This document shows positions 600 through 36,856 of a stretch of 64,000 nucleotides of DNA, one piece after another; within the stretch, counting starts at the first letter, position 1; each line of letters opens with the position of its first letter. The notes beneath the pieces are model-generated. The model was not told where the DNA came from. It was given only the letters and a program-made list of their open reading frames with translations, and searched no databases. The DNA comes from Candidatus Saccharibacteria bacterium QS_5_54_17 (GTDB lineage Bacteria; Patescibacteriota; Saccharimonadia; QS-5-54-17): contig PXOU01000018.1 in assembly GCA_003022365.1 (NCBI GenBank), forward strand, positions 11,900-75,899, given 5' to 3'. The position numbers and the translations under genes were made by a program.

Positions 600-1330
600 T
601 AGGCCGCGTAGGAACAGGGAGCAGGAAGCAAGTAGCAAGTAAAAAAATGCAAATCCTCTCTTGTCATTCCGGCCGCCGAGCCGGAATCCATTAATCCGAC
701 ATGATCTAAAAAGCACTTTTTATACAAAATTCACGATCGTGAACTATACATAAAAGATAAGCGCAATTGCAAGGAACGTCCTTGCAAGATTAAAATCGCT
801 ACTAAAAGCGCTACTTGGCGCAAAATTGCAAGGACGTTCCTTGCAAAAATAGATCCTGAAATAAATTCAGGATGACAAAAAGTGTGTCATTCCGAACTTG
901 GTTCGGAATCGAGTCTGAAACAGATCCTGAAATAAATTCAGGATGACAATAGGGGAAGATCCTGAAACAAGCCTGCCTACCGGCAAGGTAGGTTCAGGAT
1001 GACATTTCTTTTTTGTCACCCGCTTTGTCATTCCGCCCCCGAGCCGGAATCCATTAAGCCGATACGGTATATCTTAAAAACCTGACTGCCGCACACAGAT
1101 TATACTCGAGGCTCAAAACCGTGCGCATAGCAGCACGCAGACAGCAGACAGTAAACGGCAGACAGGGAGCAGGGAGCGGGCAGCAGGAAGCAGGGAGTAA
1201 GAAGTAAGCAGATCTTAAGAGGGGTGGCGAAAAATTGTCATCCTGAACTTGTTTCAGGATCGGTTTCAGGATCTATTTCAGACTCGATTCCGAACCAAGT
1301 TCGGAATGACAAAGAGGGGAGGTCGCTGGC
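600..1330. repeat. Mosaic intergenic repeat array (hairpin modules GTCATYC…GRATGAC, twin-palindrome element 764-848, AG-rich trailer 600-650)
   Basis: Direct sequence comparison with 17 other arrays in the window. Confidence 0.8.
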
Positions 1331-2648: not shown

Positions 2649-3170
2649 CCCACAGGAATAAGAAGTAAGCAGTAAGAAGCAAGAAGTAAGTTTCGGAATC
2701 GGTTCTGAAATAGATCCTGAAACTGATCCCGGATCGGGGTCCGGGATGACATCTTCAGGATGATGGTTATTTTTCGTCACCTTCTTTGTCATTCCGGCCA
2801 CCGAGCCGGAATCCATGAACCCGATATGATCCAGAAACAGATTCTGAAACAAGCCTGCCTACCGGCAAGGCAGGTTCAGGATGACATTTCTTTTTCGCCA
2901 CCCTCTCTGTCATTCCGAACTTGGTTCGGAATCTCATTCTGCAACAGAGAAACAGATCCCGGATCGGAGTCCGGGATGACATCTTCAGGTTCAGGATGAC
3001 GCCTTTAGAGCCCGTCCTGAACTTGTTTCAGGGATGACAATTCAGGAATGATGTTCAGCCCGGTTTTTGTTGCCGGGTTTTGATAATGATTCCGGGTGCT
3101 CGCGCACAAACACCTCCTTGTTGTTTACTGCATCCGAGGTGTTCGATATGTCGTGTCACTATACGCAAGT
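2649..3170. repeat. Mosaic intergenic repeat array; the last ~110 bp (3055-3166) is a module also found at 22040-22164
   Basis: Sequence identity to other arrays. Confidence 0.8.
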
Positions 3171-3207
3171 TTTGAAGAGTATACCTTGGTGTGCCATTAT
3201 TATTGCA

Positions 3208-3987
3208 ATGACCAATGTTTTTGATCTCAAACAATTTGCAAACGAAAAAGGTTTAGAATTGCCTCACCAGAGTGCAATTCTTGAAGAAGCAACAGAAAAC
3301 ATAGTTTCCAAATATTCACATGATAAAGAACAGATAAAAGACAACTTCGATTCTATGATTTTTGAAACGGAAAAAGAGGCGTACAACGTATATCTTAAGC
3401 ACGAGCAACAGTACGGCGAAAGAGTATTCAACGCTTTCTTCGAATACCTGCAAGAAAATAAAGAAATTAATGCTATCAATGAAGCCGGATCTGTTCTCGG
3501 AAGTTATTTTTACTCACTCGATAGGTTTTTTCTCTCACTAAAGCAGTCACGAACTGTGAGGGCAGGGAAAACATTCGAAGGCATCACGAGGAATCTCTTC
3601 AAAATTCTCGATTATCCTTTCGAAGAACAAGTTACGATTGATGGAGGCAATACCCCGGATTTTCTCATGCCTTCAGCTGAGCATTATGAAGCCAATGCAC
3701 CAGATTGCATCATTTTTACATCGAAACGTACTTTACGCGAACGATGGCGCCAGATTGTGACAGAAGGAACAAGGGGTCTTGGTTTCTATCTCGCGACCAT
3801 GGACGAAGGAATATCCAAGGCTCAATTGAATGAAATGCAGCATAACAGGATATTCGTTGTGGTACCCGAACAAATAAAAACAAAAAAATATTCAGAAACC
3901 GTCAATGTTCTCAGCTTCACCCGATTTTTTAATGACTATCTCGATCCTGCAGTTGAAAGATGGCGACGGAACGGAGTTATCAGTTGA
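3208..3987 (+). CDS. Putative type II restriction endonuclease (family not recognised)
   Basis: AT-rich ORF directly upstream of a C5-MTase and vsr. No recognisable conserved domain by eye. An alternative start is ATG 3148 (GAGGT SD, inside the repeat module). Confidence 0.45.
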   Translation: MTNVFDLKQFANEKGLELPHQSAILEEATENIVSKYSHDKEQIKDNFDSMIFETEKEAYNVYLKHEQQYGERVFNAFFEYLQENKEINAINEAGSVLGSYFYSLDRFFLSLKQSRTVRAGKTFEGITRNLFKILDYPFEEQVTIDGGNTPDFLMPSAEHYEANAPDCIIFTSKRTLRERWRQIVTEGTRGLGFYLATMDEGISKAQLNEMQHNRIFVVVPEQIKTKKYSETVNVLSFTRFFNDYLDPAVERWRRNGVIS

Positions 3988-4073
3988 ATGACCGTTGTTA
4001 CTTCCGAGAAGTTGCAATACGAACAAAAAACGAATATCATAAAAGCATAAGCATATAAATAAGGAGAGCTTTT

Positions 4074-5228
4074 GTGGTTATGGATAATAGGCTAAGATTA
4101 AATCAGCTAAGTTTTTGGGAGAAAAGGGAGGTGCGGTCAGTGATTCCAGCAAAGAATAGTGTAAAAGGATATCGATTTATAGATTTATTCGCAGGAATCG
4201 GTGGAATCAGGTCCGCTTTCGAGAATTCTGGTAATACATGTGTTTTTTCTTCCGAGTGGGACAAGCACTGCCAAGCTACTTACAAGGCAAATTTCGGAGA
4301 AAAGCCCTATGGGGACATAACAAAAATCAATGAGAAGGATATTCCGGATCATGACATACTATTAGCCGGTTTTCCGTGCCAACCTTTTTCAGTGGCCGGT
4401 GTGTCCAAAAAACTCAGCTTGAAGCGCCAACATGGCTTTGCGGACGAAGAGCAGGGAAATCTGTTTTTTGATATAGCTCGTATAATTGCAGAGAAAAGAC
4501 CAACTGCTTTCATGCTTGAAAATGTTAAAAATCTTAAAAGCCATGATGGCGGCAAAACGTTTGAAGTTATTCGCAATACTCTGGAAGATCTGGGATACAG
4601 CGTGCACGAAAAAGTCATTGATGCGATTGATTATGTCCCCCAGCACAGGGAAAGAATTTTCATAGTAGGGTTCGATAAAAAGAAAGCCGGAGATATCAAT
4701 TTCAATTTTCCCCAACCGCCGCGCACAAAAAATGCGATTGCCGATATACTCGAAAAAGATGCTGATGAAAAACACACACTTTCAGATAAGCTTTGGAATT
4801 ATCTGCAGGGTTATGCTGATATTCATAAAGAAAAAGGTAACGGTTTTGGGTTCGGTCTTATTGATCCCGAAACTGATACAGCAACACGCACACTCAGTGC
4901 ACGATATTACAAGGATGGATCAGAAATTCTCATAAAACAGGCTGATAATAACCCTCGAAAACTTACGCCACGGGAGTGCGCCAGACTGATGGGGTTTGAT
5001 GATTCATTTCAAATTCCTGTTTCAGATACACAAGCTTACAAACAGTTCGGTAATTCAGTAGTGGTTCCTGTAGTTGGCGCAGTTGCCTCGCAGCTGGTTC
5101 ATGCGCTAGATTCAGTATATGGACGGACTGTCGAGAGAAGCCCGAAGCAGAAACATGTCAAAAATCGGGGCAAAAAACACAAAACCCGAGTTACTGGTAC
5201 GGAAATTCCTGCACAACAAGGGTTATAG
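4074..5228 (+). CDS. DNA (cytosine-5)-methyltransferase, HpaII/MspI-like
   Basis: C5-MTase motifs: FAGIGG (I), PCQPFS (IV), ENV (VI), QFGNSV (VIII). FSSEWD, RERIFIVGF and KGNGFGF resemble M.HpaII from memory. AGGAG SD before GTG 4074. Confidence 0.9.
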   Translation: MVMDNRLRLNQLSFWEKREVRSVIPAKNSVKGYRFIDLFAGIGGIRSAFENSGNTCVFSSEWDKHCQATYKANFGEKPYGDITKINEKDIPDHDILLAGFPCQPFSVAGVSKKLSLKRQHGFADEEQGNLFFDIARIIAEKRPTAFMLENVKNLKSHDGGKTFEVIRNTLEDLGYSVHEKVIDAIDYVPQHRERIFIVGFDKKKAGDINFNFPQPPRTKNAIADILEKDADEKHTLSDKLWNYLQGYADIHKEKGNGFGFGLIDPETDTATRTLSARYYKDGSEILIKQADNNPRKLTPRECARLMGFDDSFQIPVSDTQAYKQFGNSVVVPVVGAVASQLVHALDSVYGRTVERSPKQKHVKNRGKKHKTRVTGTEIPAQQGL

Positions 5229-9722: not shown

Positions 9723-10150
9723 AGGGGTAGACGGAGAACGGGGAGTAAGAAGCAAGCAGTAAGGAGTAAGTGGGAGAGGTGACACGCAATTGCAAGGACC
9801 GTCCTTGCAATGGGAGAGTTTTCTCTCTCTTTGTCATTCCGAATTTAGTTCGGAATCGTTGCTGCAATAGATCCTGAAATAAATTCAGGATGACAATAGG
9901 GGAATATCCTGAAACAAGCCTGCCTGCCGGCAGGCAGGTTCAGGATGACATCTTTTTTTGCCACCCCCTCTGTCATTCCGAAGACGTCATCCCGGACCCC
10001 GCCCGCACTGAGCAAGGTCGAAGTGATCCGGGATCAGTTCGGAATCGGCTCTGAGCCTGCAACAGATCCTGAAACAAGTTCAGGATGACATCCTTAGGAG
10101 GACATGATGTTCAATAGCCCCGAGACTATACGCTTCTTGTGAGATCTTTT
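9723..10150. repeat. Mosaic intergenic repeat array
   Basis: AG-rich trailer 9723-9775, TTGCAAGGACCGTCCTTGCAA palindrome 9787-9815, hairpin modules, and a partial TGTTCAATA…GACTATACG module 10096-10133. Confidence 0.8.
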
Positions 10151-11497: not shown

Positions 11498-12304
11498 GTG
11501 CGGTTCAATGTAGGCTCCCTTTCCACGGCCAAAGACGGGTCCCGGACCAACGAAGACACCGTATTGGTCTGGGAAGAGGCGGGGCTGTTCGGGGTGTTCG
11601 ACGGCATCGGCGGCGGTGGTGACGGCGACGTGGCCAGCTCGGTGGCTGCCCAGGCGGTGACGTCCTTTTACGCCCGTGAGTCGGGCGAGGTGGCGGCGGA
11701 CTCCTCCCAAGCTGACGGCCTGGCTCGCCAGGCGCTGGTGGAAGCCGGGCGGGCGCTGGCTCGGCGAGCAGCCCAAGCGCCATCGGTGAGTGCCGAGATG
11801 GGTACCACCGCCACCATCGGCTGTGTGCATCACGAAGAAGACGGTTTTGGCTTAACCTACGCGCATGTGGGGGATTCCGGGCTACTCGTCTACCGGCGCG
11901 ACCAGGATCACCTGACTTTCCTTACCGAAGATGAAGCCCAGGAGAATGTACTGGACAACGCCCTGACTGCCCGGGAGGAGGTGCTCCACGGTGTGCGCCA
12001 ATACGCTCGCGTAACGCTCCAGCCGGGCGACCGGCTGGTCTTTTTCACTGACGGCATCAGCGGCGACACTCCTGACCAACGGCTCAGCCGGGCGGAATAC
12101 CGGCAGGCGATCGTCGGGGTGTCGCCGCAGCAGGCGGCCCGGGCGTTGTCGGAGACCAGCCGCAAATCTGACGACACCTCGGTTGTGGTGGTGGATCCGC
12201 TGGTGGATGAGGCGAACAGGAAGCAGGAAGTAAGAAGCAAGCGGGAGACGGGGAGTAGACAGCAGACGGTAGACAGTAGACAGGGAACGGGGAACAGGGA
12301 GTAA
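11498..12304 (+). CDS. PP2C-family Ser/Thr protein phosphatase
   Basis: FDGIGGGGDGD metal-binding motif. GTG start with GGAGG SD. The last ~25 codons are translated from the AG-rich repeat module. Confidence 0.85.
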   Translation: MRFNVGSLSTAKDGSRTNEDTVLVWEEAGLFGVFDGIGGGGDGDVASSVAAQAVTSFYARESGEVAADSSQADGLARQALVEAGRALARRAAQAPSVSAEMGTTATIGCVHHEEDGFGLTYAHVGDSGLLVYRRDQDHLTFLTEDEAQENVLDNALTAREEVLHGVRQYARVTLQPGDRLVFFTDGISGDTPDQRLSRAEYRQAIVGVSPQQAARALSETSRKSDDTSVVVVDPLVDEANRKQEVRSKRETGSRQQTVDSRQGTGNRE

Positions 12305-12500
12305 GGAGTAAGAAGCAAGAAGCAAGTGAAAAAATGCAAAACCTCTATGTCATTCCGAGCCTCCTCCGTCATTCTGAACTTGTTTCAGAATCAGCATTGA
12401 AATAGATCCTGAAATAAATTCAGGATGACAATAGGGGAGGATCCTGAAATAAATTCAGGATGACATCTTCAGGAATGACATCTTTAGGAATGATACTTCG
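12305..12500. repeat. Mosaic intergenic repeat array
   Basis: AAAATGCAAAACCTCT-TGTCATTCC module plus TCCTGAA hairpins. Confidence 0.8.
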
Positions 12501-12656: not shown

Positions 12657-14309
12657 ATGGCACAAGAAACACCCGAATTCGATCCCAATCAGGAAGCGGT
12701 CCAGGACCCGGCGTCCGGGGAGCCAGCGGAAACGGAATCGAATAATGAGGGAAAACCGGATGAGAACCGGCAACCGGAGGACGCCCGGGACTCGAATGAC
12801 GAAAAGGAATCGGCAGAGTCGGAAGTAGAAACGCCGGAATCCGGCAATGAGCACTTTCGGGGTTTGCGGGGTTCGCTCCAGCGCGGCAGGCGCGCCAGGC
12901 GCGGCAAATCCCATGCATCAGCGGAAAACCAAGACGGGGAAGCCGGAGCGGAAGCTTCCGGAAACGAACCGGAGGAACCGGATGATGCGGGAGAACCGGA
13001 TGAGGACCCACAACCGGAGGATGAGCAGGATTCAGATGACAAGGAGGGATCGGAACCAAATCAAGATCCGTACGTAATCAGTGCAGTAGCGGGAGCGCCC
13101 GGCGACGGTGAAGCGGTCCAGCAACCGGACGCTACCGGGGCGGAAGTGAATGATGCCGCCGGCGAAGCACAGCAGAATCAAGATCAGCAGGAACAGAATC
13201 AAAATCAGGCGGAACTGAGCCAAGCGGACCGCAATCGCCGCGACTTCCTCCGCCAGATGAAGGACACATCCAAGGAAGCCGTCCTGGGGGCAACGACGAA
13301 AGCCCAGATGTGGTGGCAGCGAGACCCGGAAAAACCTGGTAAGGCCAAATACGGTGTCGTCCTCGGGGCGATCGCCGTCACCGCCACCTCCAAGTACCTT
13401 CCTGAGGCAATCGACTCTATACAAGGCGGGGAGGCAACCGCCGGTTCGCCGGTAGGAGAGAGCGGCGGCACCCCGGTGAACCCCGCCGAGTCCGCGCCCG
13501 AGGCGGCTCCCTATGCCGCTGGCGGCCAAGTCGAGGGGACGCTCGAAAAAGTAGCCCCAGAGGCCCAGGCTCGTTTCGGCGAACTGGCCGGTGATCGGGT
13601 GGACATTACTATACCCAAGGGCAGTAACGTCTGGGATCAACTGGAACTGGCGGTTGACCAGCGGGCCGATGTGAGCTTTGAACGCAAGCAGGAGATAGTC
13701 GATGCCATGGTTGATCAGATGCGAGTCGAGTACCCGGGGCAGGATCTGAGCCACGTACACCCCGGTGATTCTTTCAGTGTCGAGCTGCCGGGTGGGGAGG
13801 CAACGGCCGACTCGTCATCGGTAGGAGAGAGCAGTAGCGCGCCGGTGGACTCTGCCGAATCCGCGTCTGATGCGGCTTCCGAAACTGCTGGGGGTCAAGC
13901 TAGCGAAACGGCCTCGATCGAGACCACTCCCGGCACTGCTGGAGGCCAAGCTGGCGAAACGGCCTCGCTGGATACTGCTCCCGACGCCGCAGAAGGCCAA
14001 GCCGGCCACACGACCGCGTCCGAAGCCATTGGAAGCCAGGTCGCCCAAACGGCCGGGGAAGTATCCCCGGAAGCTCAGGCTCGCTTCGGTGAACTGGCCG
14101 GTGAACGGGTGGATATCACCATCCCCGAGGACAGTAATCTGCGGGATCAACTGGAAATGGCGGTCGACCAGCGCACCGGCGTGGTGGACTTTGCCCGCAA
14201 GCAGGAAATAGTGGACGCCATGGTCGATCAGCTTCGAACCGAATACCCCAGCCAGAATCTGGACTACGCCCACACCGGCGATTCCTTCAGCATCCACCTG
14301 CCCGCCTAA
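12657..14309 (+). CDS. Hypothetical acidic low-complexity protein with two ~85-aa C-terminal repeats (AQARFGELAG…VDAMVDQ…)
   Basis: AAGAGG SD. Long ORF with an internal duplicated domain and one hydrophobic segment. Confidence 0.6.
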   Translation: MAQETPEFDPNQEAVQDPASGEPAETESNNEGKPDENRQPEDARDSNDEKESAESEVETPESGNEHFRGLRGSLQRGRRARRGKSHASAENQDGEAGAEASGNEPEEPDDAGEPDEDPQPEDEQDSDDKEGSEPNQDPYVISAVAGAPGDGEAVQQPDATGAEVNDAAGEAQQNQDQQEQNQNQAELSQADRNRRDFLRQMKDTSKEAVLGATTKAQMWWQRDPEKPGKAKYGVVLGAIAVTATSKYLPEAIDSIQGGEATAGSPVGESGGTPVNPAESAPEAAPYAAGGQVEGTLEKVAPEAQARFGELAGDRVDITIPKGSNVWDQLELAVDQRADVSFERKQEIVDAMVDQMRVEYPGQDLSHVHPGDSFSVELPGGEATADSSSVGESSSAPVDSAESASDAASETAGGQASETASIETTPGTAGGQAGETASLDTAPDAAEGQAGHTTASEAIGSQVAQTAGEVSPEAQARFGELAGERVDITIPEDSNLRDQLEMAVDQRTGVVDFARKQEIVDAMVDQLRTEYPSQNLDYAHTGDSFSIHLPA

Positions 14310-14560
14310 TGCAGGAGACAAGGAACAAGGAACAGGGAGCAAGGAGCAAGGAGCAAGGAACAAGGAGTAAATGGAGAAATACAAACCCTCTCTGTCATTC
14401 CGAGCCCCCTCCGTCATTCTGAACTTGTTTCAGAATCAGCATTGAAATAGATCCTGAAATAAATTCAGGATGACATCTTCAGAGCCTGTCCTGAACTTGT
14501 TTCAGGAATGACATCTTCAGAGTCTGTTGCCCTTCACTCCCTGTCTCCTGTCTACTGATT
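14310..14560. repeat. Mosaic intergenic repeat array
   Basis: The (CAAGGAG)n trailer directly follows the stop codon. Confidence 0.8.
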
Positions 14561-14968: not shown

Positions 14969-17041
14969 ATGGACTATGTTATTTGGTTCATCCTGCTGCT
15001 GGCTTTACTCCTCTTCGCTGGGAAGGACTACGTCCTTCCCTGGTGGAGGCGCCGGCAGCAGAGCTCGGACTCCTCAGCGAGTCCGAGCAGCTCGGCGGAG
15101 ACGCCGTCGAGCCCAGAACCCGACTCGGACCCCGAATCCGAGTCGGAATCGGAGTCCGAGCCCGAGCAGGACTCGGAGTCGGAGCCCGAAAACGGGCCCG
15201 ACCCGGAGTCGGCGTCTGAAACCGAGCCAGTTCCGGCCCCTGAGCCGGAACCTGAGCTCGATTCCGATTCGGAACCCGAGTCCAAATCGGAGTCCGAGTC
15301 CGAGCAGGACTCGGGGTCCAGCGCCGCCACGGCCAAACGGCCACGGCGACTTACGCGACAGCAGGTCGGAGCCGGCCTGCTGATTGTCGTCCTTGTTCTG
15401 TCATTGGGCGGCAATGTCGTGCTGTATTGGATGGTAGAGGGCCTGAACGATACGGTCGCCTCCATGCAAGAACAGCTCGACGAGCTCCGCGATCAAAATG
15501 ATCGCGGAGGGGAGGTCGCAGATGGCCACGGAAGGCCAGGAGGCGCCGTCGCCACCCAGGACGAGGCGGAAGCCCAAGCGGCATCCGCCGAGCAAGTGGA
15601 GGCCTGCGCCGCGCAAAAGCCGGTGCAGTTCGACGTCCAGCCGAGCGGTCGGTGGGGAGAGCCCGTCGAGGCGGAAACCCACCAGGCCGCCCTTGCGGAG
15701 CTAGAGAAAACGCTCTGTGAGCGTCCAGATATTTTGGCCGCTCTCAGTACCGAGTTCGGACTTACCGATGCCGGCTTCGCGGTCGATGAGCAGGTGGCAT
15801 TGGCCACCTCATACATCGACAATCGTGAAAAGTGGCGTCAGGCTGTGGATGAGCTGATGGCTCATATTCACAGCCAGGATGTACGGCTCGGTGTCGAAGA
15901 AGGTCGCTACAAGACCTTCTTCATGGAGGCCACGGAGGGCGTTCCCTGGTTATTCCAGGATGTTCGCACATCCGGGCCTCGAAAGGTCCTCCGCGTGGGT
16001 GATACGGACCTGCAGCTTATTTGCAGGTTCCAACCACGCGAGGCAGCGCCAGCGCCCGCGCCACAGCCGGCTCCCGAGCAGTCGGAGTCGGATCATGTAC
16101 ACCAGCCGTCCGGCGGCGGCCAGGAACGCGTCGTCGAACAGCCAGACGACGTGTCATCTCCTGATGACAACCAGTCATCAGGAGATTCCCCCGACCGTTC
16201 TTCGGATGACGGCCGGTCATCCGACGGCGACGCGGATGAGTTGGTCATCCGCGTCTGCGACATTCGGTTGAAGGAGAAACGGGTTGTGCCGCAAAGTGCG
16301 GCCAACCAGTTTGACCACTTTACCCTCGACTTTTCGAAGTGCGAGGGTGACGACAGCTCCGACGAGTCCTCCGACAGTGAGGACTCCGAGGACTCTTCGG
16401 AGTCCTCCGATGATTCGTCTGACGCGCAAAAGGACCCCAGTGAGGGTCCGATGCGCAACGACGACATCTCCGAGTCCGTCAAAGGACCGGGGACGACCGC
16501 ACCCGGTGGCGATCCGGGGGAGGCCGACGCTCCCGAGGACCATGACCGGTCCCGGGAGGACGTGGCCGACGACGGGTGCGAGGGCGACTGCCCCGCCCCG
16601 GAGTCCAGCCCACAACCGGATTCGGAGCGCACTCCGGAATCCGGCGACCAGCCGCCAGCGGCGGACGAGCCCAGCGGCGGCAACGACCCGGAGGGGAACG
16701 ACCCCGGGTCGTGTGGTGACGGCGCTCGTAGCTGCGGCTATGAGCAGCCTGGCTCGTCGGATGGCACACCCCCTGAGGACGACCAGTCCTCTGGAGGTGG
16801 CCAAAGCGGAGTCGTCGAGCAGCCCGCCGACGACTCTTCCGGAGAGTCTTCCGCTGATGACAGCGGGAACTCGTCCTCCGGCGGCGACTCTGATGACAGC
16901 CAGTCATCCGAGTCGTCCGACAGCGACTCGTCCTCTGACAATGAGGCGTCTAGCGGTTCCTCGGAGGACTCCTCCGAGGTTGGTACCGACTCGAAGGCTG
17001 AGGACGACGACACGAGTCAGCACGTGGATAACTCGTTCTGA
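14969..17041 (+). CDS. Hypothetical membrane protein, extremely Ser/Asp/Glu/Pro-rich and disordered, with 2 TM segments
   Basis: AAAGGAGG SD. N-terminal TM helix and a possible ~130-aa globular core. Confidence 0.55.
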   Translation: MDYVIWFILLLALLLFAGKDYVLPWWRRRQQSSDSSASPSSSAETPSSPEPDSDPESESESESEPEQDSESEPENGPDPESASETEPVPAPEPEPELDSDSEPESKSESESEQDSGSSAATAKRPRRLTRQQVGAGLLIVVLVLSLGGNVVLYWMVEGLNDTVASMQEQLDELRDQNDRGGEVADGHGRPGGAVATQDEAEAQAASAEQVEACAAQKPVQFDVQPSGRWGEPVEAETHQAALAELEKTLCERPDILAALSTEFGLTDAGFAVDEQVALATSYIDNREKWRQAVDELMAHIHSQDVRLGVEEGRYKTFFMEATEGVPWLFQDVRTSGPRKVLRVGDTDLQLICRFQPREAAPAPAPQPAPEQSESDHVHQPSGGGQERVVEQPDDVSSPDDNQSSGDSPDRSSDDGRSSDGDADELVIRVCDIRLKEKRVVPQSAANQFDHFTLDFSKCEGDDSSDESSDSEDSEDSSESSDDSSDAQKDPSEGPMRNDDISESVKGPGTTAPGGDPGEADAPEDHDRSREDVADDGCEGDCPAPESSPQPDSERTPESGDQPPAADEPSGGNDPEGNDPGSCGDGARSCGYEQPGSSDGTPPEDDQSSGGGQSGVVEQPADDSSGESSADDSGNSSSGGDSDDSQSSESSDSDSSSDNEASSGSSEDSSEVGTDSKAEDDDTSQHVDNSF

Positions 17042-17456: not shown

Positions 17457-19136
17457 ATGCGGAATTTAAAAAATTACGCCTCATACATACCCAAGCAGTT
17501 CGTGGTCATGTTGGCGATTATGGCGCTGGTAGCGGCGCCGCTTGGGACCTACGCCAACTGGTCCCCGGAACGGGAGACCTACACCATGGACAACCCGGCC
17601 GAGAAAGTCACCTTCAACTCGATGACCGACAACTCCAACTACGGAGACGAGCGGACCTTTTTCGACGCCAAACCGGCCTCCAACAACAGCGAGGGAGGCT
17701 TTCAGGATGAAATCCAGGTCGGCGATCTGGAAGACGGCCAGGAAGTTACGCTCCGGATGTACGTCCACAACAACGCCAAAGAGGAGTTAAACGAAAGCTC
17801 CAGCGATGACGACAACGTCGGATTCGACGGGGAAGGCATCGCCAAAAATACCCGCGTCAGCGTTATGCTGCCGGAGGACACCACTCGGAGTATGCGATCG
17901 ATCGGCTACGTATCCGCCGATAACGCCGAGCCCGGCCAGGTCAGCGATACGCTGGATCTGAAGTCCAGCGACCGGCCGTTTAACGTGGAATACGTGGACG
18001 GTTCGGCGACGCTGTACAACAACGTCCACGAGAGTGGCATCCAGCTCAGCGACAAGATCGTGACTGATGAGGGTGCCCAAGTCGGCTATGAGCGGATGAA
18101 CGGTAATTATCCCGGTTGCTTCCAGTACGCTTCCATCGTGACCTTAAAAGTCAAGGTCAATAAAGCCGACGTCGGCGTCACCAAACAGGTACGCCAGGCC
18201 GGTGACGAGGACTGGCACAGCGAAATCGAGGCCCAACCCGGCGACAAGCTGGAGTACTTGATCAGCCTGGAGAACACCGGCGATTCCAAGCTGAAAAACG
18301 TGGCCGTGGCTGACAACCTGCCCAAGTACATGTCCTACGTGGAAGGCAGCACCAAGTACGCCAATGGCGCAACCGACGGTGAAAAGACCAATCTGGATAG
18401 CGACAACCTCACCAGAGGCGGGGTCGACCTGGGCAACTACGGCCCCGGCGCCAATGCCTTCGTTAAGTTCCAAGCCCAACTGGATTCGGCCGACAAGTTC
18501 GACAAATGCGGTGAGTACCGACTACGCAACGTCGGCATCGTGCGGCCGTTCCACGAGAGCGACCAGATGAACCAGTTCCTCAATACCGCCGATGTGGTGG
18601 TCAACGTGGAGTGTGAACCCGAACCGGAAGAGCCGGAAGTTTCCTTTAGTTGTCAGGACCTGGAAGCCAGCGACCGGCAGGGGACCGAAAGCCTGGAAAC
18701 TACCTTTACGGCCAAGGCGCAGGTGAACAACACAAGCATCACCGAGTACCAGTGGGACTTCGACGGCGACGGTGAAGTTGACGCCACCACCGACAACAAC
18801 CAGATTACCTACACCTACAACCAGCCGGGTGACTACACCGCCCAGGTAAAGGTGGTTACCGAAGACGGGGAGACCGACTTCATCCAGGATTGCCGGGAAG
18901 CCATCACCGTGCAACCGGCCGAGTCTCAAGAGGACGAAGAGCAAGAGCAGGAAGAACAGCAGCAGCAACAGCAACAACAACAGCAGCAGCAACAACAGCA
19001 AACCTCGGAAGAGCTTCCCAACACCGGCATCGGCAGCACGCTGGCCGGTATCTTCGGCAGCGGCGCCTTGGGCGTCAGCGTCCGGAGCTGGTGGCAGAGC
19101 CGGCGCGGATACTTAGCCAGCTTACTGGGCGAGTAA
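17457..19136 (+). CDS. Cell-surface protein: signal peptide, DUF11-like repeat domain, PKD domain, poly-Gln linker, LPNTG sortase anchor
   Basis: AAGGAGAG SD. PKD motif WDFDGDG. C-terminal LPNTG followed by a hydrophobic stretch and RSWWQSRRG. Confidence 0.8.
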   Translation: MRNLKNYASYIPKQFVVMLAIMALVAAPLGTYANWSPERETYTMDNPAEKVTFNSMTDNSNYGDERTFFDAKPASNNSEGGFQDEIQVGDLEDGQEVTLRMYVHNNAKEELNESSSDDDNVGFDGEGIAKNTRVSVMLPEDTTRSMRSIGYVSADNAEPGQVSDTLDLKSSDRPFNVEYVDGSATLYNNVHESGIQLSDKIVTDEGAQVGYERMNGNYPGCFQYASIVTLKVKVNKADVGVTKQVRQAGDEDWHSEIEAQPGDKLEYLISLENTGDSKLKNVAVADNLPKYMSYVEGSTKYANGATDGEKTNLDSDNLTRGGVDLGNYGPGANAFVKFQAQLDSADKFDKCGEYRLRNVGIVRPFHESDQMNQFLNTADVVVNVECEPEPEEPEVSFSCQDLEASDRQGTESLETTFTAKAQVNNTSITEYQWDFDGDGEVDATTDNNQITYTYNQPGDYTAQVKVVTEDGETDFIQDCREAITVQPAESQEDEEQEQEEQQQQQQQQQQQQQQQTSEELPNTGIGSTLAGIFGSGALGVSVRSWWQSRRGYLASLLGE

Positions 19137-19139
19137 CGC

Positions 19140-19745
19140 GCACCTAACCCGGGGGGTGAGCTTCATCTCTCACCCCTCCGCGCTCCCTGGGGGTACCACA
19201 GGAGTACCCCCAGGTGCCAACCAAGAGGAAGCAAGTGGGGGTCAGTAGACAGCAGACAGTAGACAGGGGAAAAACAACGGGAAGCAAGGAGTAAGAAGTA
19301 AGAAGCAAGTGGCAGTCAGTAGACAGGAGACAGCAGACAGGGGAAAAAGAACGGGAAGTAAGCAGTAAGTAAGAGGCGCGACACACAATTACAAGGAACG
19401 TCCTTGCAATATTAAAAATCACTACCAAAAGCGCTACTTGGCGCAAAATTGCAAGGACGTTCCTTGCAAAAGGAGGGTTTTTTCTCTTTTTGTCACTGGG
19501 AATTTAGTTCGGAATCGTTTCTACAGCAGATCCTGGAATAGATCCTGAAATAAATTCAGGATGACAGTAGGAATAGATCCTGAAACAAGCCTGCCTGCCG
19601 GCAGGCAGGTTCAGGATGACATTTTCCGTTACCCCCCCTCTGTCATTCCGAAGACGTCATCCCGGACCCCGCCTGCACTGAGTAAGGTCGAAGTGATCCG
19701 GGATCAGTTCGGAATCTGATTCCGCAACAGGGGAACGATCACGGA
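19140..19745. repeat. Mosaic intergenic repeat array (two tandem AG-rich trailers, twin-palindrome element 19385-19471)
   Basis: Sequence identity to other arrays. Confidence 0.8.
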
Positions 19746-19788
19746 TCTGGGCGGGGCGACCCCTGTCAATCGCTCTACCTTCAATCAC

Positions 19789-19820
19789 TTGACATTAATC
19801 ATATAAAATGCTACTATAAT
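19789..19820 (+). promoter_or_regulatory. Sigma70-type promoter TTGACA-N17-TACTATAAT
   Basis: Near-consensus promoter about 125 nt upstream of ATG 19945. Confidence 0.55.
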
Positions 19821-19944
19821 GGCACCATATGCATTCCGGGGTGGAGTTTTGCCAAATTGGCAATTCCATACCAAAACAGTTGCCTCATGAGGGCAAAGGA
19901 TTGTATACTAGGGATTGTTAATAAGGAGATTTGGAGGTTTGAGG

Positions 19945-21639
19945 ATGTTATTAAGTGCCTTGCAGCGAAAGAATGTTTTCTTAATCATCGGGGTATTCCT
20001 GCTGAGTATTACCGGTATATTCCAGATGAATTCCGGCCCGACCCATGCCATCCATGGCAACGACGTCATCGACGGCGGGGTCAGCAGCGAACAGGAACTG
20101 CAGCAGATTGTCAGAGACGACAGCAGCGACCCGCATGCCCACCACATATTTAACCAAGCCTTCGGCGGCTATACGACACCTGAGGATATGACCGGCATGC
20201 AAAGGGGTACCCTGCACCGTGACGGCCGGGTGACGGTCAACGGCGAAACGGTGGCCCGGAATGCCGCTACTTCCGGACGAAAACATTTCAGCCAACATGA
20301 CCAGGTCCTGGCCAGGGATAACAACGGAGATCCGATTGCCTATTACGCCCCAGCACCGCACCGTTTCGACGAGGACGCCCAGAGTCCGGAGGTGTTGGTC
20401 AAGCTGGACGAGAACGGCCAGTACCAGCACGCCGTGCTTACCAGCTGCGGCAACCCGGTCATCGCTGACGCCGTCCAACAAGAACCGGAACCTGAGCCGG
20501 AACCGGAAGTTTCCTTTAGCTGTCAGGATCTGGATGCCAACGACAGCTCGGCCGTGGGCACGCTGACCACCACCTTCACCGCCGACGTTGAGGTGAAAAA
20601 CACGGAAGTCACCGAGTACCAATGGGACTTCGACAGCGACGGCAACGTTGACGCCACCAGCCGGGACAACAAGGTGAAACATACCTACCGGGAGCCGGGC
20701 GAATACATCGCCCAGGTGAATGTGGTCACCCAAGACGGGGAAACCGGCTTTACCCCGCGCTGCAAGACGCGGATCACCGTCCAGGAAGAATCCGAACCAG
20801 AACCAGAACCCGAGCCGGAACCGGTAGTTTCCTTTAGCTGTGAAGACCTGGACGCCAGCGACAGCTACGGCCGGGGGAACCTGACCACCACCTTTACCGC
20901 CGACGCCCAGGCCGAAAACACGAACATCACCGAGTACCAATGGGACTTCGACGGCGACCAAAATGTTGATAAAACTACCCAGGACAATCAGGTTACCCAC
21001 ACCTATGAGGAAGTCGGTGAGCACACCGCCGCGGTCAAGGTCGTAACCCAGGACGGGAAGACCGGCTTCAGCAGCCAGTGCCAAACCTCAGTGACCGTCG
21101 ATGAAGCGTCTGAGCCGGAACCCGAAGAAGCTGCCTTCGAATGTGATGGTCTCAGCGTCAGCGACCGCCAGGGGACTGAAAGCCTGGAAACCACCTTCAC
21201 CGCCGACGCCGATACCCAAAACACATCAGTCACCGAGTACCAATGGGACTTCGACGGCGACCAGAATGTCGATGAAACCACCCAGGAAAACCAGATCACC
21301 CACACCTACACCCAGCCGGGCGAGTACACCGCCCAGGTGAACGTGGTCACCGAAGACGGGGAAACCGGCTTCACCGCAGATTGCCGGGAAGCCATCACCG
21401 TCGAAGAAAAACCCGAACCTCAAGAGGACCAACAACAGCAGCAACAGCAACAGCAACAGCAACAACAGCAACAACAACAGCAGCAGCAACAGCAAACTAG
21501 CAAACAACAGCCCGATCAGTTGGCCAATACCGGTCTCGGCAGCGCGGCCATGGGATTGATGGGCAGCGCTTCCCTGGGCGTCGGCCTCCGCAGCTGGTGG
21601 CGCACCAAACGCAACCTGCGCCAGAGCCTGCGCGGATAA
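19945..21639 (+). CDS. Cell-surface protein with 4 tandem PKD domains, (EP)n linkers, a poly-Gln tract and a LANTG sortase-type anchor
   Basis: GGAGG SD before ATG 19945. Signal peptide. Four WDFD(G/S)DG PKD repeats. C-terminal LANTG, hydrophobic stretch and RSWWRTKRN. Confidence 0.8.
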   Translation: MLLSALQRKNVFLIIGVFLLSITGIFQMNSGPTHAIHGNDVIDGGVSSEQELQQIVRDDSSDPHAHHIFNQAFGGYTTPEDMTGMQRGTLHRDGRVTVNGETVARNAATSGRKHFSQHDQVLARDNNGDPIAYYAPAPHRFDEDAQSPEVLVKLDENGQYQHAVLTSCGNPVIADAVQQEPEPEPEPEVSFSCQDLDANDSSAVGTLTTTFTADVEVKNTEVTEYQWDFDSDGNVDATSRDNKVKHTYREPGEYIAQVNVVTQDGETGFTPRCKTRITVQEESEPEPEPEPEPVVSFSCEDLDASDSYGRGNLTTTFTADAQAENTNITEYQWDFDGDQNVDKTTQDNQVTHTYEEVGEHTAAVKVVTQDGKTGFSSQCQTSVTVDEASEPEPEEAAFECDGLSVSDRQGTESLETTFTADADTQNTSVTEYQWDFDGDQNVDETTQENQITHTYTQPGEYTAQVNVVTEDGETGFTADCREAITVEEKPEPQEDQQQQQQQQQQQQQQQQQQQQQQTSKQQPDQLANTGLGSAAMGLMGSASLGVGLRSWWRTKRNLRQSLRG

Positions 21640-21769
21640 GCCGGGCAACTCGAGAAAACAAGACACAGACACCCGGGCCCCATGGGGCCCGGGTAAAAAA
21701 ATTACCAACTTCCGCCGGGCCACGCGGGGTAGAACACGTGAATGAATCCTGCCGCCCCGCTCCCGTGTA

Positions 21770-22170
21770 CCCTCTTTGTCACTGTGAACCTCCTCTGTCA
21801 CTGCGAATTTAGTTCGGAATCGTTTCTGCAACAGTTCCTGAAATAGATCCTGAAACAAGCCTGCCTGCCGGCAGGCAGGTTCAGGATGACACTTCTTTTT
21901 CGTTACCCCCCCCTCTGTCATTCCGAAGACGTCATCCCGGACCCCGATCCGGGATCAGGTTCGGAATCCAATCCTGACACTGGGCCTAAAACTGATCCTG
22001 AAATAAATTCAGGATGACAATTCAGGGGTGACATATTCAGGAATGACATTTAGTCCGGTTTTTGTTGCAGGGTTTTTGATAATAGTTCCGGGTTTTACGC
22101 CCGTGAACACCTCCTTGTTGTTTACTGCATCCGAGGTGTTCAATAAGCCGGGCGACTATACGCCATACTT
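21770..22170. repeat. Mosaic intergenic repeat array ending in a 110-bp module shared with 3055-3166
   Basis: Sequence identity. Confidence 0.8.
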
Positions 22171-22206
22171 AACCGGGTAGCAGTAATCCTTTATACTGCC
22201 CGTGTA

Positions 22207-23301
22207 ATGCATGAGATAACCAAAGAACTCCACGCGCTGCTCGGGCGCATCGAAGAAGCCAGCCGCCAGCTGGGCATCGAAACCAAGCAACGCCGGATCT
22301 CGGAAATGGAGCGTTCCATGCAGTCGCCGGAATTCTGGCAGGATCCCGAGACGGCGGCGGCGACCTCCAAGCAACACGCCCATTTGAAAAAACAGGTGGA
22401 CTCCTGGCAACAGTTGCGCCAAGACGCCCGGGCGGCGCTGGATCTGGCCCGGATGGAAGATCACCAGTTGCTGGAGGAGCTAAAGGAGCAATATACCGAC
22501 ATTAAATCCCGGTTCGAGGAAAAGGAATTGGAAGTCAAACTCTCCGGAGTCTACGACGGCCATGACGCCATCCTCCACATCCATAGCGGCACCGGCGGAA
22601 CCGACGCCCAGGACTGGGCGCGGATGCTGGAACGGATGTACCTGCGATTCGCCGACCGGAGCCAGCTGCAGGCGGAAATTTTGAGCCGGTCCCAAGGCGA
22701 GGAAGCCGGTATTAAGAGCGCCATTGTCCGACTGGAAGGCTCCTATGCCTACGGGCGGCTGAAAGGTGAGCACGGCGTGCACCGGCTGGTGAGAAAAAGC
22801 CCCTTTAATTCCGATAATTTGCGCCAGACCAGTTTCGCCCTGGTGGAGGTGACCCCCGACATCCCCGAACCGGAAACTGATGACATTAATGAAAATGATG
22901 TAACCATCGATACCTATCGGGCCAGCGGCAAAGGTGGCCAGGGGGTAAACACCACCGACTCGGCCGTCCGGATCACCCACCAACCCACCGGCATCATGGT
23001 GGCTATTCAGAACGAACGTTCCCAACTGCACAACAAGCAAACCGCCTGGAAGATCCTCCGCGCCCGCCTGGCCCGGCTCCGGGAGGAACAGCGGGCGGAA
23101 ACCATCGACGAACTCCGAGGGTCCCATTTAACCGAGCAGTGGGGGAGCCAGATCCGCAATTACGTACTCCATCCCTATACCTTAGTCAAGGATACCCGGA
23201 CCGGAGTGGAAACTGCCCAAGCCGAAGCAGTCCTGGAAGGCGAGCTGGATGATTTCATCGACGCCTACTTAACCCAGCAGATCGGAGTCAGTAGGCAGTA
23301 G
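22207..23301 (+). CDS. prfB: Peptide chain release factor 2
   Basis: SPF and GGQ motifs. Uninterrupted ORF with no +1 frameshift site. Confidence 0.9.
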   Translation: MHEITKELHALLGRIEEASRQLGIETKQRRISEMERSMQSPEFWQDPETAAATSKQHAHLKKQVDSWQQLRQDARAALDLARMEDHQLLEELKEQYTDIKSRFEEKELEVKLSGVYDGHDAILHIHSGTGGTDAQDWARMLERMYLRFADRSQLQAEILSRSQGEEAGIKSAIVRLEGSYAYGRLKGEHGVHRLVRKSPFNSDNLRQTSFALVEVTPDIPEPETDDINENDVTIDTYRASGKGGQGVNTTDSAVRITHQPTGIMVAIQNERSQLHNKQTAWKILRARLARLREEQRAETIDELRGSHLTEQWGSQIRNYVLHPYTLVKDTRTGVETAQAEAVLEGELDDFIDAYLTQQIGVSRQ

Positions 23302-23640
23302 ACAGGGAACAAGGAACAGGGAACAAGGAGCAGGGAGCAAGAAGTAAGTGACACGCAATTGCAAGGAACGTCCTTGCAATATTAAAAATCGTTACCAAAA
23401 GCGCTACTTGGCGCGAAATTGCAAGGACGTTCCTTGCAAAAGGAGGGCCTCCTCTCTTTTTGTCACTGCGAACTTGGTTCGGAATCGTTTCTGCAAAAAA
23501 TCCCGGCATAGATCCTGAAACAAGCCTGCCTGCCGGCAGGCAGGTTCAGGATGACAATAGGGGAAGATCCTGAAACAAGTTCAGGATGACACTTTTCCCC
23601 TCTCTGTCATTCCGGCCGGCGAGCCGGAATCCTTTAACGT
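23302..23640. repeat. Mosaic intergenic repeat array (twin-palindrome element 23355-23441)
   Basis: Sequence identity. Confidence 0.8.
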
Positions 23641-23656
23641 GTGTTAAGATAAACCC

Positions 23657-24334
23657 GTGATACTACTTGATCGGCTGGGAAAGCAATACGGATCCAACGA
23701 GGCACTGTCCCACGTTAATTTACACATTCACCCCAAGGAGTTCGTTACGGTGGTGGGGGAATCCGGCGCCGGCAAATCGACGCTGATCCGCTTATTAATC
23801 CGGGAAGAGAAGCCCTCGTCGGGGAAAATCATCGTCGGTGGCATCGACTATGAAGGCGTCAAACGCCGGGACATTCCCCGGCTGCGCCGCCGCATCGGGG
23901 TGGTGTTCCAGGACTTCAAGTTGCTGCCCAACCGGAACGTACGTGAAAACGTGGCCTTTGCCCTGGAGATTACCGGAGCCCGGCCCAGTGTCATCAAACA
24001 CACTGTGCCCAAAGTCTTGCAATTGGTGGGGTTGGCGGGGAAAGAACATAATTTCCCCCGGGAACTTTCCGGCGGTGAACAGCAGCGGGTGGCCATCGCC
24101 CGGGCGGTGGTGCGCCAGCCCAAGATTCTGATCGCCGACGAGCCGACCGGCAACCTGGACCCCAAACACTCCTGGGACATCATCGAATTACTGCTGAAAA
24201 TTAACCGCTACGGAACCACTGTGATTTTGGCCACCCATAACCGGGATATCGTTAACGCCCTGCAGCGCCGGGTGGTCACCCTCCGCGGCGGCCGCGTCAT
24301 CGATGATCAGGAACAGGGAGCCTACAATGTATAG
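23657..24334 (+). CDS. ftsE: Cell division ABC ATPase FtsE
   Basis: Walker [18 protein letters not shown] signature and Walker B. Confidence 0.9.
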
Positions 24335-24418
24335 CCGGGCAGCAGCCTACAGGCGATTGTATAATCCGTTCCGGCTCGGGGCTTGCTGCTGGCGCCCCGC
24401 TCTGGGTAGGAGGGGCCC

Positions 24419-25345
24419 GTGCTAGTCCGCAAGCTCTTCATGCTGACTCGGGTCATGGAGGCGGGGACGCGGAATTTCTTCCGGAACGCCTGGCTGAGCG
24501 TGGCTGCTATCACCGTCATGGCGGTGACGCTGACCATCATGTTGTCAGCGGTGGTGTTCAATATGGCGCTGGGCAACACGCTGGATAAGGTGACGGAGAA
24601 GATCGACGTGGCGGTTTACTTCAACGATGAGGCCTCGCGGTCGCAAATTGACCAGTTTCAAGAGGCGCTTCTGGCTCGTGGCAACGTGACTGCGGTCGAT
24701 TTCATTTCCAAATCCGAGGCGCGGGAGCGGTACCGGGAGGAACGCAGCTCTCAGCAAGGAGAACAGCCCATCGACCCGGTTACCCCAGGCGACAACCCCT
24801 TGCCCCGCTCGGTCGAGATCACGGTGGCCGATCTTACCCGGGTGGGGCAAATCTCGGATCTGGCCCAAAGCCAACAATACGCGCCCATTGTCGAGGAAAC
24901 CTCCTTAGGCGGGGACCAACGGGATACCATCCAGCGGATCGCCACGGTGCGTGAATCTTTACTGACGGCCGGTTTGGTGGCTAGCTTGATTTTTGCCGGC
25001 ATTTCGGTATTGATTATCTTTAATACCATCCGGATGGCCATATTCGCCCGGGGAGAAGAGATCAGCATCATGCGGCTCATAGGGGCGACTAACGCCTTCA
25101 TACGGGGGCCGTTCCTGTTCGAGGCCATCCTGGACGGGATTATCGCAGCCTTGATCGCGCTGGGACTGGTGTACGCCCTGTTGTTCCGGAGCGGGGCCTC
25201 GCTAATCGATTACGTGGATTTCGAAAGTACCGTTACCTTCTTCGCCGAGGCGTGGCCGCTGGTGGCAGGGGGGACGATTCTGGCCGGTATCCTGCTGGGC
25301 GCCTTTTCCAGCACCCTGGCCATGGCCCGGTATTTGCGGCTGTAA
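24419..25345 (+). CDS. ftsX: Cell division permease FtsX
   Basis: 4-TM FtsX topology with a large extracellular loop. GTAGGAGG SD. Follows ftsE. Confidence 0.85.
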   Translation: MLVRKLFMLTRVMEAGTRNFFRNAWLSVAAITVMAVTLTIMLSAVVFNMALGNTLDKVTEKIDVAVYFNDEASRSQIDQFQEALLARGNVTAVDFISKSEARERYREERSSQQGEQPIDPVTPGDNPLPRSVEITVADLTRVGQISDLAQSQQYAPIVEETSLGGDQRDTIQRIATVRESLLTAGLVASLIFAGISVLIIFNTIRMAIFARGEEISIMRLIGATNAFIRGPFLFEAILDGIIAALIALGLVYALLFRSGASLIDYVDFESTVTFFAEAWPLVAGGTILAGILLGAFSSTLAMARYLRL

Positions 25346-25569
25346 CAGGGCGGCGGGGAAGAGCAATATAAAGATCGATATAGCCCCTATACCACACCCG
25401 CCTCCTCGATAATTAAGGTCATAAATCAGATTTGAGCCAGTTACACGGGCGTGCTAGTCTGCCAAATGCTTGCTTGGCGCGAGCTTACATCATTTTCCCG
25501 TTACTCCCGGCGCCAGTAAGCATTGACATTTTGTACTTCATTTTGTACAATAAGGAGTGGTCAGCAGCA

Positions 25570-26748: not shown

Positions 26749-26769
26749 TCATTCGACGATCCCGCCTGC

Positions 26770-27250
26770 GTTAAACGGATACTCCCGGGGCCAAAACAGG
26801 AAGCAGGAAGTAAGTGGGAGACATATACGTAATTGCAAGGACGGTCCTTGCAAAAGGAGGGTTCTCTCTCTTTGTCATTCCGAATTTAATTCGGAATCGT
26901 TTCTGTAACAGATCCTGAAACAAGTTCAGGATGACACTTCTTTTTCGTTACCCCTCTCCGTCATTCCGAAGACGTCATCCCGGACCCCGATCCAAGATCA
27001 GTTCGGAATCGGGTTTGAAACTGATCCTGAAACCGATCCTGAAACAAGTTCAGGATGACAATAGGGGAAGATCCTGAAATAAATTCAGGATGACACTCCT
27101 TTTTCGTTACCCCTCTCCGTCATTCCGAAGACGTCATCCCGGACCCCGATCCGGGATCAGGTTCGGAATCGGCTCTGATTTTAAAACCTCCTTGTTGTTT
27201 ACTGCATCCGAGATGTTCAATATGTCCCGAGACTATACGGGCCTACATTC
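26770..27250. repeat. Mosaic intergenic repeat array
   Basis: Sequence identity, including the TGTTCAATA…GACTATACG module 27186-27240. Confidence 0.8.
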
Positions 27251-28200: not shown

Positions 28201-28261
28201 GGATCACAAATAGAACTTAGGGGGCGCCCGGGGTTTTTGCTGGTGTGCTACAATAGCGTGA

Positions 28262-31451: not shown

Positions 31452-31627
31452 CGGCCGCCTCCTGATAAACTGCCCGCATCGTACCATGGCCCAACCGTCC
31501 TGGCGCAAATCGTGATGGGTGGGGTATAATGGGAGTGACGAGTCACCATGTATACGTTCGCTGCTATGATAACCACGCCCATCTATTCCTTGGCTTCATC
31601 GAGCAGTAAACCCGGTAGACTGCTGCT

Positions 31628-33052: not shown

Positions 33053-33059
33053 GGCGCGA

Positions 33060-33910: not shown

Positions 33911-33949
33911 TAACCATAAGCATACCGCGCCTGCCCGCACATGTACAGC

Positions 33950-34345: not shown

Positions 34346-34400
34346 TGCTTACTTCTGGTTCTATGCCCGGTGTGCTGAGGTGTACTACAATGCGTAGGTA

Positions 34401-36853: not shown

Positions 36854-36856
36854 CTA

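Follow-up and report, generated by a model that had tools for sequence, protein, structure and literature searches.

Repetitive extragenic palindromes (REPs) are known to form REPINs (REP doublets forming hairpins), in which two REPs in inverted orientation fold into one hairpin and are replicated as a doublet, singlets are left as remnants, and the gene for a REP-associated tyrosine transposase (RAYT) is itself flanked by REPs (PMC3116915, PMC3337134); features of REPs and REPINs were also reported in PMC2817692 and PMC3333891. The RAYTs described in PMC5581495 are single-copy and vertically inherited. Most described REPs carry a GTAG or CGTC tag, an unpaired tetranucleotide at the hairpin foot by which two large super-families are defined (PMC3733652, PMC6006769), and some REPs have no such tag (PMC6006769). 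Here we examined a stretch of 64,000 nucleotides from Candidatus Saccharibacteria bacterium QS_5_54_17 (contig PXOU01000018.1, positions 11,900 to 75,899), called the window below, which contains several intergenic copies of a ~80-bp composite of two palindromes. We consider it probable that this composite is a non-autonomous element of the REPIN type, mobilised in trans by a RAYT-like transposase.

We searched the window with the pattern TTGCAAGGANNNTCCTTGCAA, allowing up to 3 mismatches, and identified 14 copies of a 21-bp palindrome, TTGCAAGGA-NNN-TCCTTGCAA, where 0.04 are expected from dinucleotide-preserving shuffles. All 14 are intergenic and outside long open reading frames (ORFs). Twelve are paired as six doublets of 78-81 bp and the other two are singlets, giving the following eight sites.

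767-846, + strand: REPIN-like doublet 1, with left REP 767-787 (central triplet ACG), spacer 788-825 (38 nt) and right REP 826-846 (CGT); between ftsA (end 599) and ftsZ.
9790-9810, no strand assigned: REP singlet with centre CCG, 68 nt past the murD stop codon.
19389-19469, + strand: REPIN-like doublet 2, with one mismatch in the left REP (TTACAAGGA) and a 39-nt spacer; between two PKD-domain genes.
23359-23439, + strand: REPIN-like doublet 3, 58 nt past the stop codon of the release-factor-2 (RF2) gene and upstream of ftsE.
26833-26853, no strand assigned: REP singlet with centre CGG, between a CHAP/PcsB hydrolase gene and an IS30-like transposase gene, which are convergent.
33329-33409, - strand: REPIN-like doublet 4, whose spacer is of the standard type and reads on the - strand; flanked by rpmA (L27) and a response-regulator gene, which are convergent.
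37479-37559, + strand: REPIN-like doublet 5 (CCG/CGG), between two hypothetical genes.
47854-47931, no strand assigned: REPIN-like doublet 6, with the inverted REPs kept (one mismatch in the left arm) and an unrelated 36-nt spacer; between a GSDH-like gene and mraZ, which are divergent.

The six composite copies and two isolated palindromes described in the initial annotation are thus real and far above chance, although its coordinates were off by 3-8 bp. The perfect 20-bp palindrome that it proposed (TTGCAAGGAC/GTCCTTGCAA) has no match in the window even at 3 mismatches, because each palindrome has an odd centre. The arms are of 10 bp around a single C or G (CCG/CGG) in three doublets and both singlets, and of 9 bp around ACG/CGT in the other three doublets. 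The core that it took to be conserved between the palindromes holds for five doublets (four copies with at most 2 mismatches, and the copy at 767 with a 1-nt deletion) but not for doublet 6, whose spacer is only ~40% identical to the others. It also overlooked that the left and right palindromes of every doublet are exact reverse complements of each other, central triplets (ACG/CGT or CCG/CGG) included, so that the two 21-mers make perfect terminal inverted repeats; the segment given there as 764-848 reads AA-TTGCAAGGAACGTCCTTGCAA-(38 nt)-TTGCAAGGACGTTCCTTGCAA.

In each of the six doublets the two REPs are inverted and stand 36-39 nt apart. Five of the units are 91-99% identical over 81 bp, spacer included (98.8% for doublets 4 and 5), and the sixth has only the palindromes in common with them. 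The units lie in four different flank contexts, and homology stops at the palindrome ends. On the 5' side every copy is flanked by RYAA (GCAA, ACAA or GTAA), and on the 3' side most have AAG or GAG; inspection of the flanks revealed no target duplication at the window copies. The 9-mer arm occurs 27 times in the window, 26 of them within the 14 palindromes and none in a coding region; the only isolated half-site is TCCTTGCAA at 42790. A DNA uptake sequence was rejected as an explanation since the arm is nearly confined to the palindromes and is never coding. The outer flanks of the singlet at 9790-9810 (GACACGCAA / ...GAGxxTTTTCTCTC) are those of doublets 2 and 3, and the right flank of doublet 6 is the reverse complement of the GTGACACGCAA flank at other copies.

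Folding of the complete unit as single-stranded DNA (ssDNA) gives a single hairpin, whose stem is of 21-22 bp and whose loop is the core, at -26 to -29 kcal/mol and z -8.1 to -9.05 (doublet 1, -28.9 kcal/mol, z -9.05; doublet 3, -29.3 kcal/mol, z -8.66; doublet 6, -26.3 kcal/mol, z -8.1), and the singlet at 9790-9810 gives a hairpin of -9.7 kcal/mol (z -5.2). By pair counts over the six copies, the inter-palindrome helix is paired at 98.4% and two local hairpins at 93.3%. The sole variable stem position is A-T in three copies and C-G in three; the inter-palindrome pairing absorbs both, whereas in two local hairpins the pair at this position is lost in three copies. This compensatory change favours the inter-palindrome helix, in a suggestive way only. 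Folded alone, the spacer has no significant structure (z -0.9 and -0.3). The repeat had no match in Rfam at the gathering level, and a permissive Rfam search returned only generic miRNA-hairpin models with 15-27 bits against cut-offs of 52-95. Alignment of the spacer of doublet 6 to the others in either direction was not clearly above shuffles, so that it could not be oriented in this way. The junction of core and REP had no match in viral contigs, and when metagenomes were scanned for two palindromes separated by any spacer of 25-55 nt, the one locus returned was L083, where direct repeats, not the same element, lie beside a RAYT-like gene. Most likely the core is only a loop, a passenger conserved solely by recent common descent.

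The palindrome is associated with a transposase gene in other Patescibacteria. A palindrome scan over 185,579 species genomes, the window's species not being among them, identified 81 loci, about half in Patescibacteria, with central triplets that are genome-specific. At L083, the single metagenome match, five palindrome copies bracket a 203-aa ORF that encodes an IS200-like Y1 transposase (Pfam Y1_Tnp, 1.4e-8). The sole NCBIfam match of this protein is REP-associated tyrosine transposase (NF047646, 1.3e-13), and JGI labels its homologues 'REP element-mobilizing transposase RayT'. A phmmer search of the RAYT-like protein against PDB returned nothing. The His-x-His motif and the Tyr (H77, H79, Y137) are invariant over 32 aligned RAYT-like sequences. 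By tblastn, an IS200-like Y1 gene is present in 10 of the 81 palindrome-selected loci, as well as in L083 and in L088/L089. At most of these loci there are palindromes at a distance of 4-100 bp from the gene, at one end or both, and they are often inverted; in L009 and L017 the sole palindrome is within the RAYT-like ORF, and in L027 none is near the gene. The identical 21-mer TTGCAAGGAACGTCCTTGCAA of the window's first sub-family occurs in L083 and L035, and in L088/L089 the variant TTGCAGGACCWGGTCCTGCAA forms an inverted doublet, located 9 nt downstream of the RAYT-like gene, with no more copies in 20 kb. Beside RAYT-like genes the palindromes have RYAA as their 5' flank and, for the most part, AAG/AGG as their 3' flank, with no GTAG/CGTC tag. 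The gene is placed ruvA-ruvB-RAYT-recA in at least three lineages, a setting reminiscent of the RAYTs in PMC5581495, and the order in L083, L035 and L088/L089, from several Saccharibacteria, is ruvC-ruvA-ruvB-RAYT-recA-(mazG)-recX. At three loci of Patescibacteria we noted REPs inside the RAYT-like reading frame itself (L008, 6418-6438 and 6729-6749; L009, 3401-3421; L017, 238-258); this reflects either invasion by the element of the gene for its putative transposase or an insertion that the tblastn alignment spans.

Comparison with relatives of the host revealed that the element turns over quickly. Relatives at 78-88% protein identity (L085, L091 and L092; 46 kb in total) contain no palindromes and almost no other modules, and their spacers are mostly much shorter, up to ~12-fold. 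The ftsA-ftsZ spacer is 804 bp in the window and 227 bp in the relatives, the rpmA-response regulator spacer 471 bp against 39 bp in L091 and 67 bp in L092, and the RF2-ftsE spacer 355 bp against 248 and 68 bp. Relatives at 96-97% identity resemble the window in the style of their mosaic, yet their orthologous spacers are not the same. Between RF2 and ftsE, where the window holds a doublet, L090 (RF2 96% identical) has no palindrome, and the spacer between the two PKD-domain genes, also with a doublet in the window, has in L090 a singlet preceded by a 7-nt fragment of another palindrome. In L086 (SecA 97%) a half-REP cut at its centre lies downstream of ftsZ, where the window has none. These differences in presence, absence and state at orthologous spacers indicate that the element is recent, dispensable and quickly changing, and is not a conserved regulatory site. 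The half-REP of L086 (1528-1550) is cut exactly at the centre and joined to a module of a second, GTCAT-tagged hairpin family described below (gacacgcaaTTGCAAGGACC/ttgtcattcc), and the fragment in L090 (gcgcaaTTGCAAG; 2418-2460) is 8 nt upstream of the full singlet; both are suggestive of a break in the hairpin, at its tip or in its stem.

Inverted doublets, a single hairpin, singlet remnants and palindromes flanking a Y1 gene match the definition of REPs and REPINs, and we therefore read the 21-mer as a REP and the composite as a REPIN. As in the REPINs of Pseudomonas fluorescens SBW25 and other Proteobacteria, the extragenic palindromes of the window are mostly inverted doublets with a short spacer, and the doublet, which folds into one long hairpin, is the dispersed unit (PMC3116915, PMC3337134, PMC5581495). 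As in the REPIN/RAYT systems of Proteobacteria, singlets seem to be remnants, and the Y1 gene of the window's relatives is flanked by the same palindromes, syntenic and apparently single-copy. The window REP differs from the REPs of Proteobacteria: it is a palindrome of 21 bp, nearly perfect and lacking a GTAG or CGTC tag, its stem is common to several classes of the candidate phyla radiation (CPR) and is not species-specific, its host is a Patescibacterium with a reduced genome, and the RAYT-like genes found beside its palindrome family come from other genomes. By analogy with IS200/IS605 and with E. coli TnpA-REP, we infer that the host genome encodes a RAYT-like gene and that the unit moves by cut-and-paste with RYAA as target. 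On ssDNA, such as the lagging-strand template, the unit would fold either into one hairpin, in which a 21-bp stem closes the core as a loop, or into two hairpins of 9-10 bp. The foot of the hairpin would be bound by a RAYT-like HUH/Y1 transposase with a single gene elsewhere in the genome, presumably beside ruvB/recA, and this enzyme would cut and rejoin the strand and paste the unit 3' of a short target (the RYAA 5' flank) without target duplication. Singlets would then be decay or deletion products of doublets, and any effect of the hairpins on transcripts would be secondary.

Several observations weigh against a REPIN mobilised by a RAYT-like enzyme. The GTAG or CGTC tag is absent from the foot of the hairpin, which leaves the element in neither tagged super-family. 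Judged by its sequence, the RAYT-like protein is probably only a distant relative of characterised RAYTs: it scores 51 bits with NF047646, whose equivalog cut-off is 80, and the profile of its family weakly matches ISDra2 TnpA (PDB) and not E. coli TnpA-REP. The 10 of 81 loci with a Y1 gene are a raw count from loci selected for the palindrome, and adjacent REPs in other genomes are inverted in only 7 of 12 pairs. By tblastn, no RAYT-like gene is in the window or in two ENA contigs of the same organism (L082/L084), and ruvB and recA are likewise absent from these sequences, so that the link to a transposase rests on other genomes. Ranking 120 homologues by GC-driven amino-acid composition did not discriminate the host's own RAYT, and the candidate P0147 was rejected for this role as it came from another sample. 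The covariation across copies amounts to the one A-T/C-G position in the inter-palindrome helix; as this is effectively one event dividing two sub-families, it is only suggestive. Finally, doublets 2 and 3, and likewise 4 and 5, have tens of flank bases in common, and duplication of larger mosaic blocks could therefore explain part of the copy number.

We considered other readings of the same data. Possibly, though we doubt it, the stem TTGCA(A)GGA/TCC(T)TGCAA and the Y1 enzyme make up an ancient, vertically inherited hairpin-nuclease system of Patescibacteria, domesticated for recombination or replication restart rather than selfish alone, which has undergone a burst in this lineage. In this account the stem is conserved across Saccharibacteria, Nomurabacteria and Microgenomates rather than species-specific, and the system is lodged between ruvAB and recA; the burst, in one Saccharimonadales lineage, would fill ~20% of what is normally a streamlined episymbiont genome together with at least one other hairpin family and arrays of a Shine-Dalgarno-like heptamer.

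The main alternative, which we regard as rather unlikely, is a mosaic that needs no transposase acting today, in which the composite is a passive module of intergenic blocks shuffled by recombination and spread by segmental duplication, gene conversion and hairpin-mediated deletion, as in the intergenic mosaics of Neisseria (NIMEs) and E. coli (BIMEs). The spacers are indeed packed with 67 GTCA(T)-tagged hairpins and with 7-nt purine arrays, doublets 2/3 and 4/5 have longer flanks in common, the REP of L086 is broken at its centre and joined to another module, and the window has no transposase for the element. However, many Patescibacteria have RAYT-like genes bordered by palindromes of this family, the boundaries of the unit are sharp at the REP ends in four flank contexts, and the six doublets are all inverted with a spacing of 36-39 nt even where the spacer is a different one.

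An element acting at the RNA level, with hairpins in 3' untranslated regions that serve mainly as stabilisers or terminators of mRNA, appears improbable. Seven of the eight sites follow a stop codon at a distance of 58-277 nt and lie between genes that are co-directional or convergent, the hairpins have a high stability, and such a role is reported for some REPs of other bacteria (PMC3733652). On the other hand, one copy lies between divergent genes, and the sites are absent or different at the orthologous spacers of close relatives and hence dispensable. No T-run follows the palindromes, whose 3' flanks are A-rich, and an intrinsic terminator was rejected since there is no T-tail and no palindrome is among the 35 terminator-like calls in 18500-38400. 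This account would moreover cover a possible side effect of the element and not its origin or spread.

The initial annotation had proposed that the palindromes are binding sites for a dimeric protein and that the core could encode a small RNA. As recognition elements for a protein the palindromes probably do serve, but the evidence favours ssDNA hairpins recognised by a RAYT-like HUH/Y1 transposase over double-stranded operators. We hold operator sites for a dimeric regulator, with a small RNA in the core, to be very improbable. The arms are near-perfect inverted repeats whose sequence recurs in many Patescibacteria, and L083 has three copies between two divergent genes. The genes adjoining the sites in the window have no common function, though, and the sites are mostly downstream of genes, absent from orthologous spacers and different between relatives at 96-97% identity. 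The small RNA likewise found no backing, as the core is unstructured, without an Rfam family at the gathering level, replaceable (it is replaced in doublet 6), and not found in the scans of viral contigs and metagenomes. Least likely of all is a classical MITE, a deletion derivative of a DDE-type insertion sequence with the same 21-bp terminal inverted repeats: the ~80-bp unit with perfect 21-bp terminal inverted repeats and the IS30-like transposase gene ~425 bp from the singlet at 26833 would fit it, but there is no target-site duplication (RYAA on one side, mostly AAG/GAG on the other), the IS30-like gene lacks these ends on its far side, and ends that are themselves palindromic, with common singlets, are typical of REPs and not of MITEs.

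The element that we read as a REPIN has further parallels among described repeats. The linker of the E. coli bacterial interspersed mosaic element (BIME) of the BIME-1/RIP type binds IHF. This type was rejected for the window element since neither strand of the spacer has the IHF consensus (WATCAANNNNTTR) or ATCAA. In Neisseria, the repeat blocks of NIMEs (Neisseria intergenic mosaic elements) are enclosed by inverted repeats of 20 bp called dRS3, and Correia elements give rise to TA duplications. Like a NIME, the short palindrome of the window brackets a repeated segment in a dense intergenic mosaic, and the window module GTCATTCCG...CGGAATC resembles dRS3 in form; unlike NIMEs and Correia elements, it has no sequence relationship to them, and the window is without an IS110/Piv-type recombinase, a filamentous prophage or TA duplications. 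The window element resembles E. coli REPs and BIMEs in having opposite REPs with a conserved linker of 30-40 bp, arranged in intergenic mosaics downstream of genes (PMC2817692, PMC3333891, PMC3479197), and differs from E. coli REP/TnpA-REP in lacking the GTAG tag and in the distant relationship of the RAYT-like protein. In IS200/IS605 elements and their palindrome-associated derivatives (IS608, ISDra2; PMC6006769) subterminal hairpins are recognised on ssDNA by a Y1 HUH transposase, as we suppose here. Their insertion on the 3' side of a short target, with no duplication, agrees with the RYAA that stands 5' of every window copy. Unlike those elements, the RAYT-like gene of Patescibacteria appears single-copy and syntenic (ruvAB-RAYT-recA), not multicopy, and the repeats are dispersed without the gene. 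We searched the literature for papers that connect REP, REPIN or RAYT with Patescibacteria and found none; these phyla also go unmentioned in a wide survey of Y1 HUH enzymes. What we read here as REPs are an untagged family within a known kind of element, from a phylum for which we found no earlier description.

The intergenic mosaic contains other repeats. In a second and commoner hairpin family, a GTCA(T) tag precedes a perfect stem of 6-12 bp, which is followed by a loop, the complementary stem and often ATC. The 67 members in the 64 kb (30 on the + strand and 37 on the -; 60 intergenic) include GTCATCCTGAAyttrTTCAGGATC, GTCATTCCGAACTTGGTTCGGAATC, GTCATCCCGGAccccgaTCCGGGATC and GTCATTCCGGCCgccgaGCCGGAATC, at sites such as 885-909, 925-948, 1236-1262, 2908-2932, 19650-19716 and 26873-26897, and their stems vary by compensatory changes. 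In form this looks like a tagged REP family with GTCA in place of GTAG, and we also take it to resemble Neisseria dRS3. It is absent from the relatives at 78-88% identity. There are also arrays of a 7-nt purine repeat (AGGGAGC, AAGGAGC, AAGAAGT, AAGCAGT, GACAGCA), many with a Shine-Dalgarno-like AAGGAG, at 600-645, 1148-1214, 2655-2690, 9724-9776, 12266-12332, 14304-14384, 19226-19380, 23288-23354, 29474-29543, 33951-34054, 39288-39354, 46098-46238, 47695-47769, 56505-56607 and 61644-61748 (-). Fourteen are on the + strand and four on the -; most begin only a few bases from a stop codon, in the sense of the upstream gene, and some (33951-34054, 47695-47769) lie instead 5' of - strand genes. 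The arrays often run straight into GTGACACGCAA and a REP, and they are present in the 96-97% relatives L086 and L090. They may be more unusual than the REP finding itself.

The window has a GC content of 56% and a coding density of ~80%; tRNA annotation and Rfam annotation of it returned nothing. SecA and RF2 of the window place the host in Saccharimonadales (Saccharibacteria, Patescibacteria). Its housekeeping genes include ftsA, ftsZ, secA, murD and a mraZ-ftsI-mraY-ftsW-murG cluster together with the release-factor-2 gene (prfB), ftsEX, pyrG, rpmA, recO, topA and the gene for a type IV coupling ATPase. Between ftsZ and secA, at 3067-5228, are genes for an EcoRII-C-domain endonuclease and a C5 DNA methylase (Dcm-like); since ftsZ and secA are adjacent in L085 and L086, this restriction-modification pair is a strain-specific insertion in a repeat-filled spacer. 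The IS30-like transposase gene (HTH_38 and rve integrase core; 27278-28168, - strand) lies near several GTCAT modules, and on its far side no TTGCAAGGA-type end was found, even at 3 mismatches. Repeats also occur within genes: a 690-aa protein has coding repeats of 6- and 12-nt periodicity rich in Ser/Glu/Pro/Asp, both PKD-domain proteins have poly-Gln tails, and a 734-aa protein has nine tandem repeats of ~30 aa with only a sub-threshold Pfam match. Low-complexity or repetitive coding regions lie at 12990-13057, 15095-15342, 18912-19019, 21391-21522 and 44155-44970. The cumulative GC skew climbs almost monotonically over the window, the AT skew is positive over about the first 50 kb and negative in the last ~12 kb and at a few points in 30-36 kb, and about 38 of the 44 genes are on the + strand; from the skew and the strand bias of the genes, the window appears to lie inside one replichore, on the leading strand. 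Identical proteins are found on two contigs of ENA assembly ERZ27230158, where the split falls at these repeat spacers.

REPIN/RAYT systems have been characterised almost only in Proteobacteria. The finding reveals no new regulator and no new RNA; an expansion of this kind is unusual for a streamlined genome, and the repeat, itself a cause of assembly breaks, lends itself as a natural marker for following turnover among strains of an ultra-small Saccharibacterium that depends on a host. The 21-nt hairpin offers a defined substrate for the biochemistry of a RAYT-like enzyme from the CPR, and the system is a case in which to ask whether such replicators persist under extreme genome reduction.

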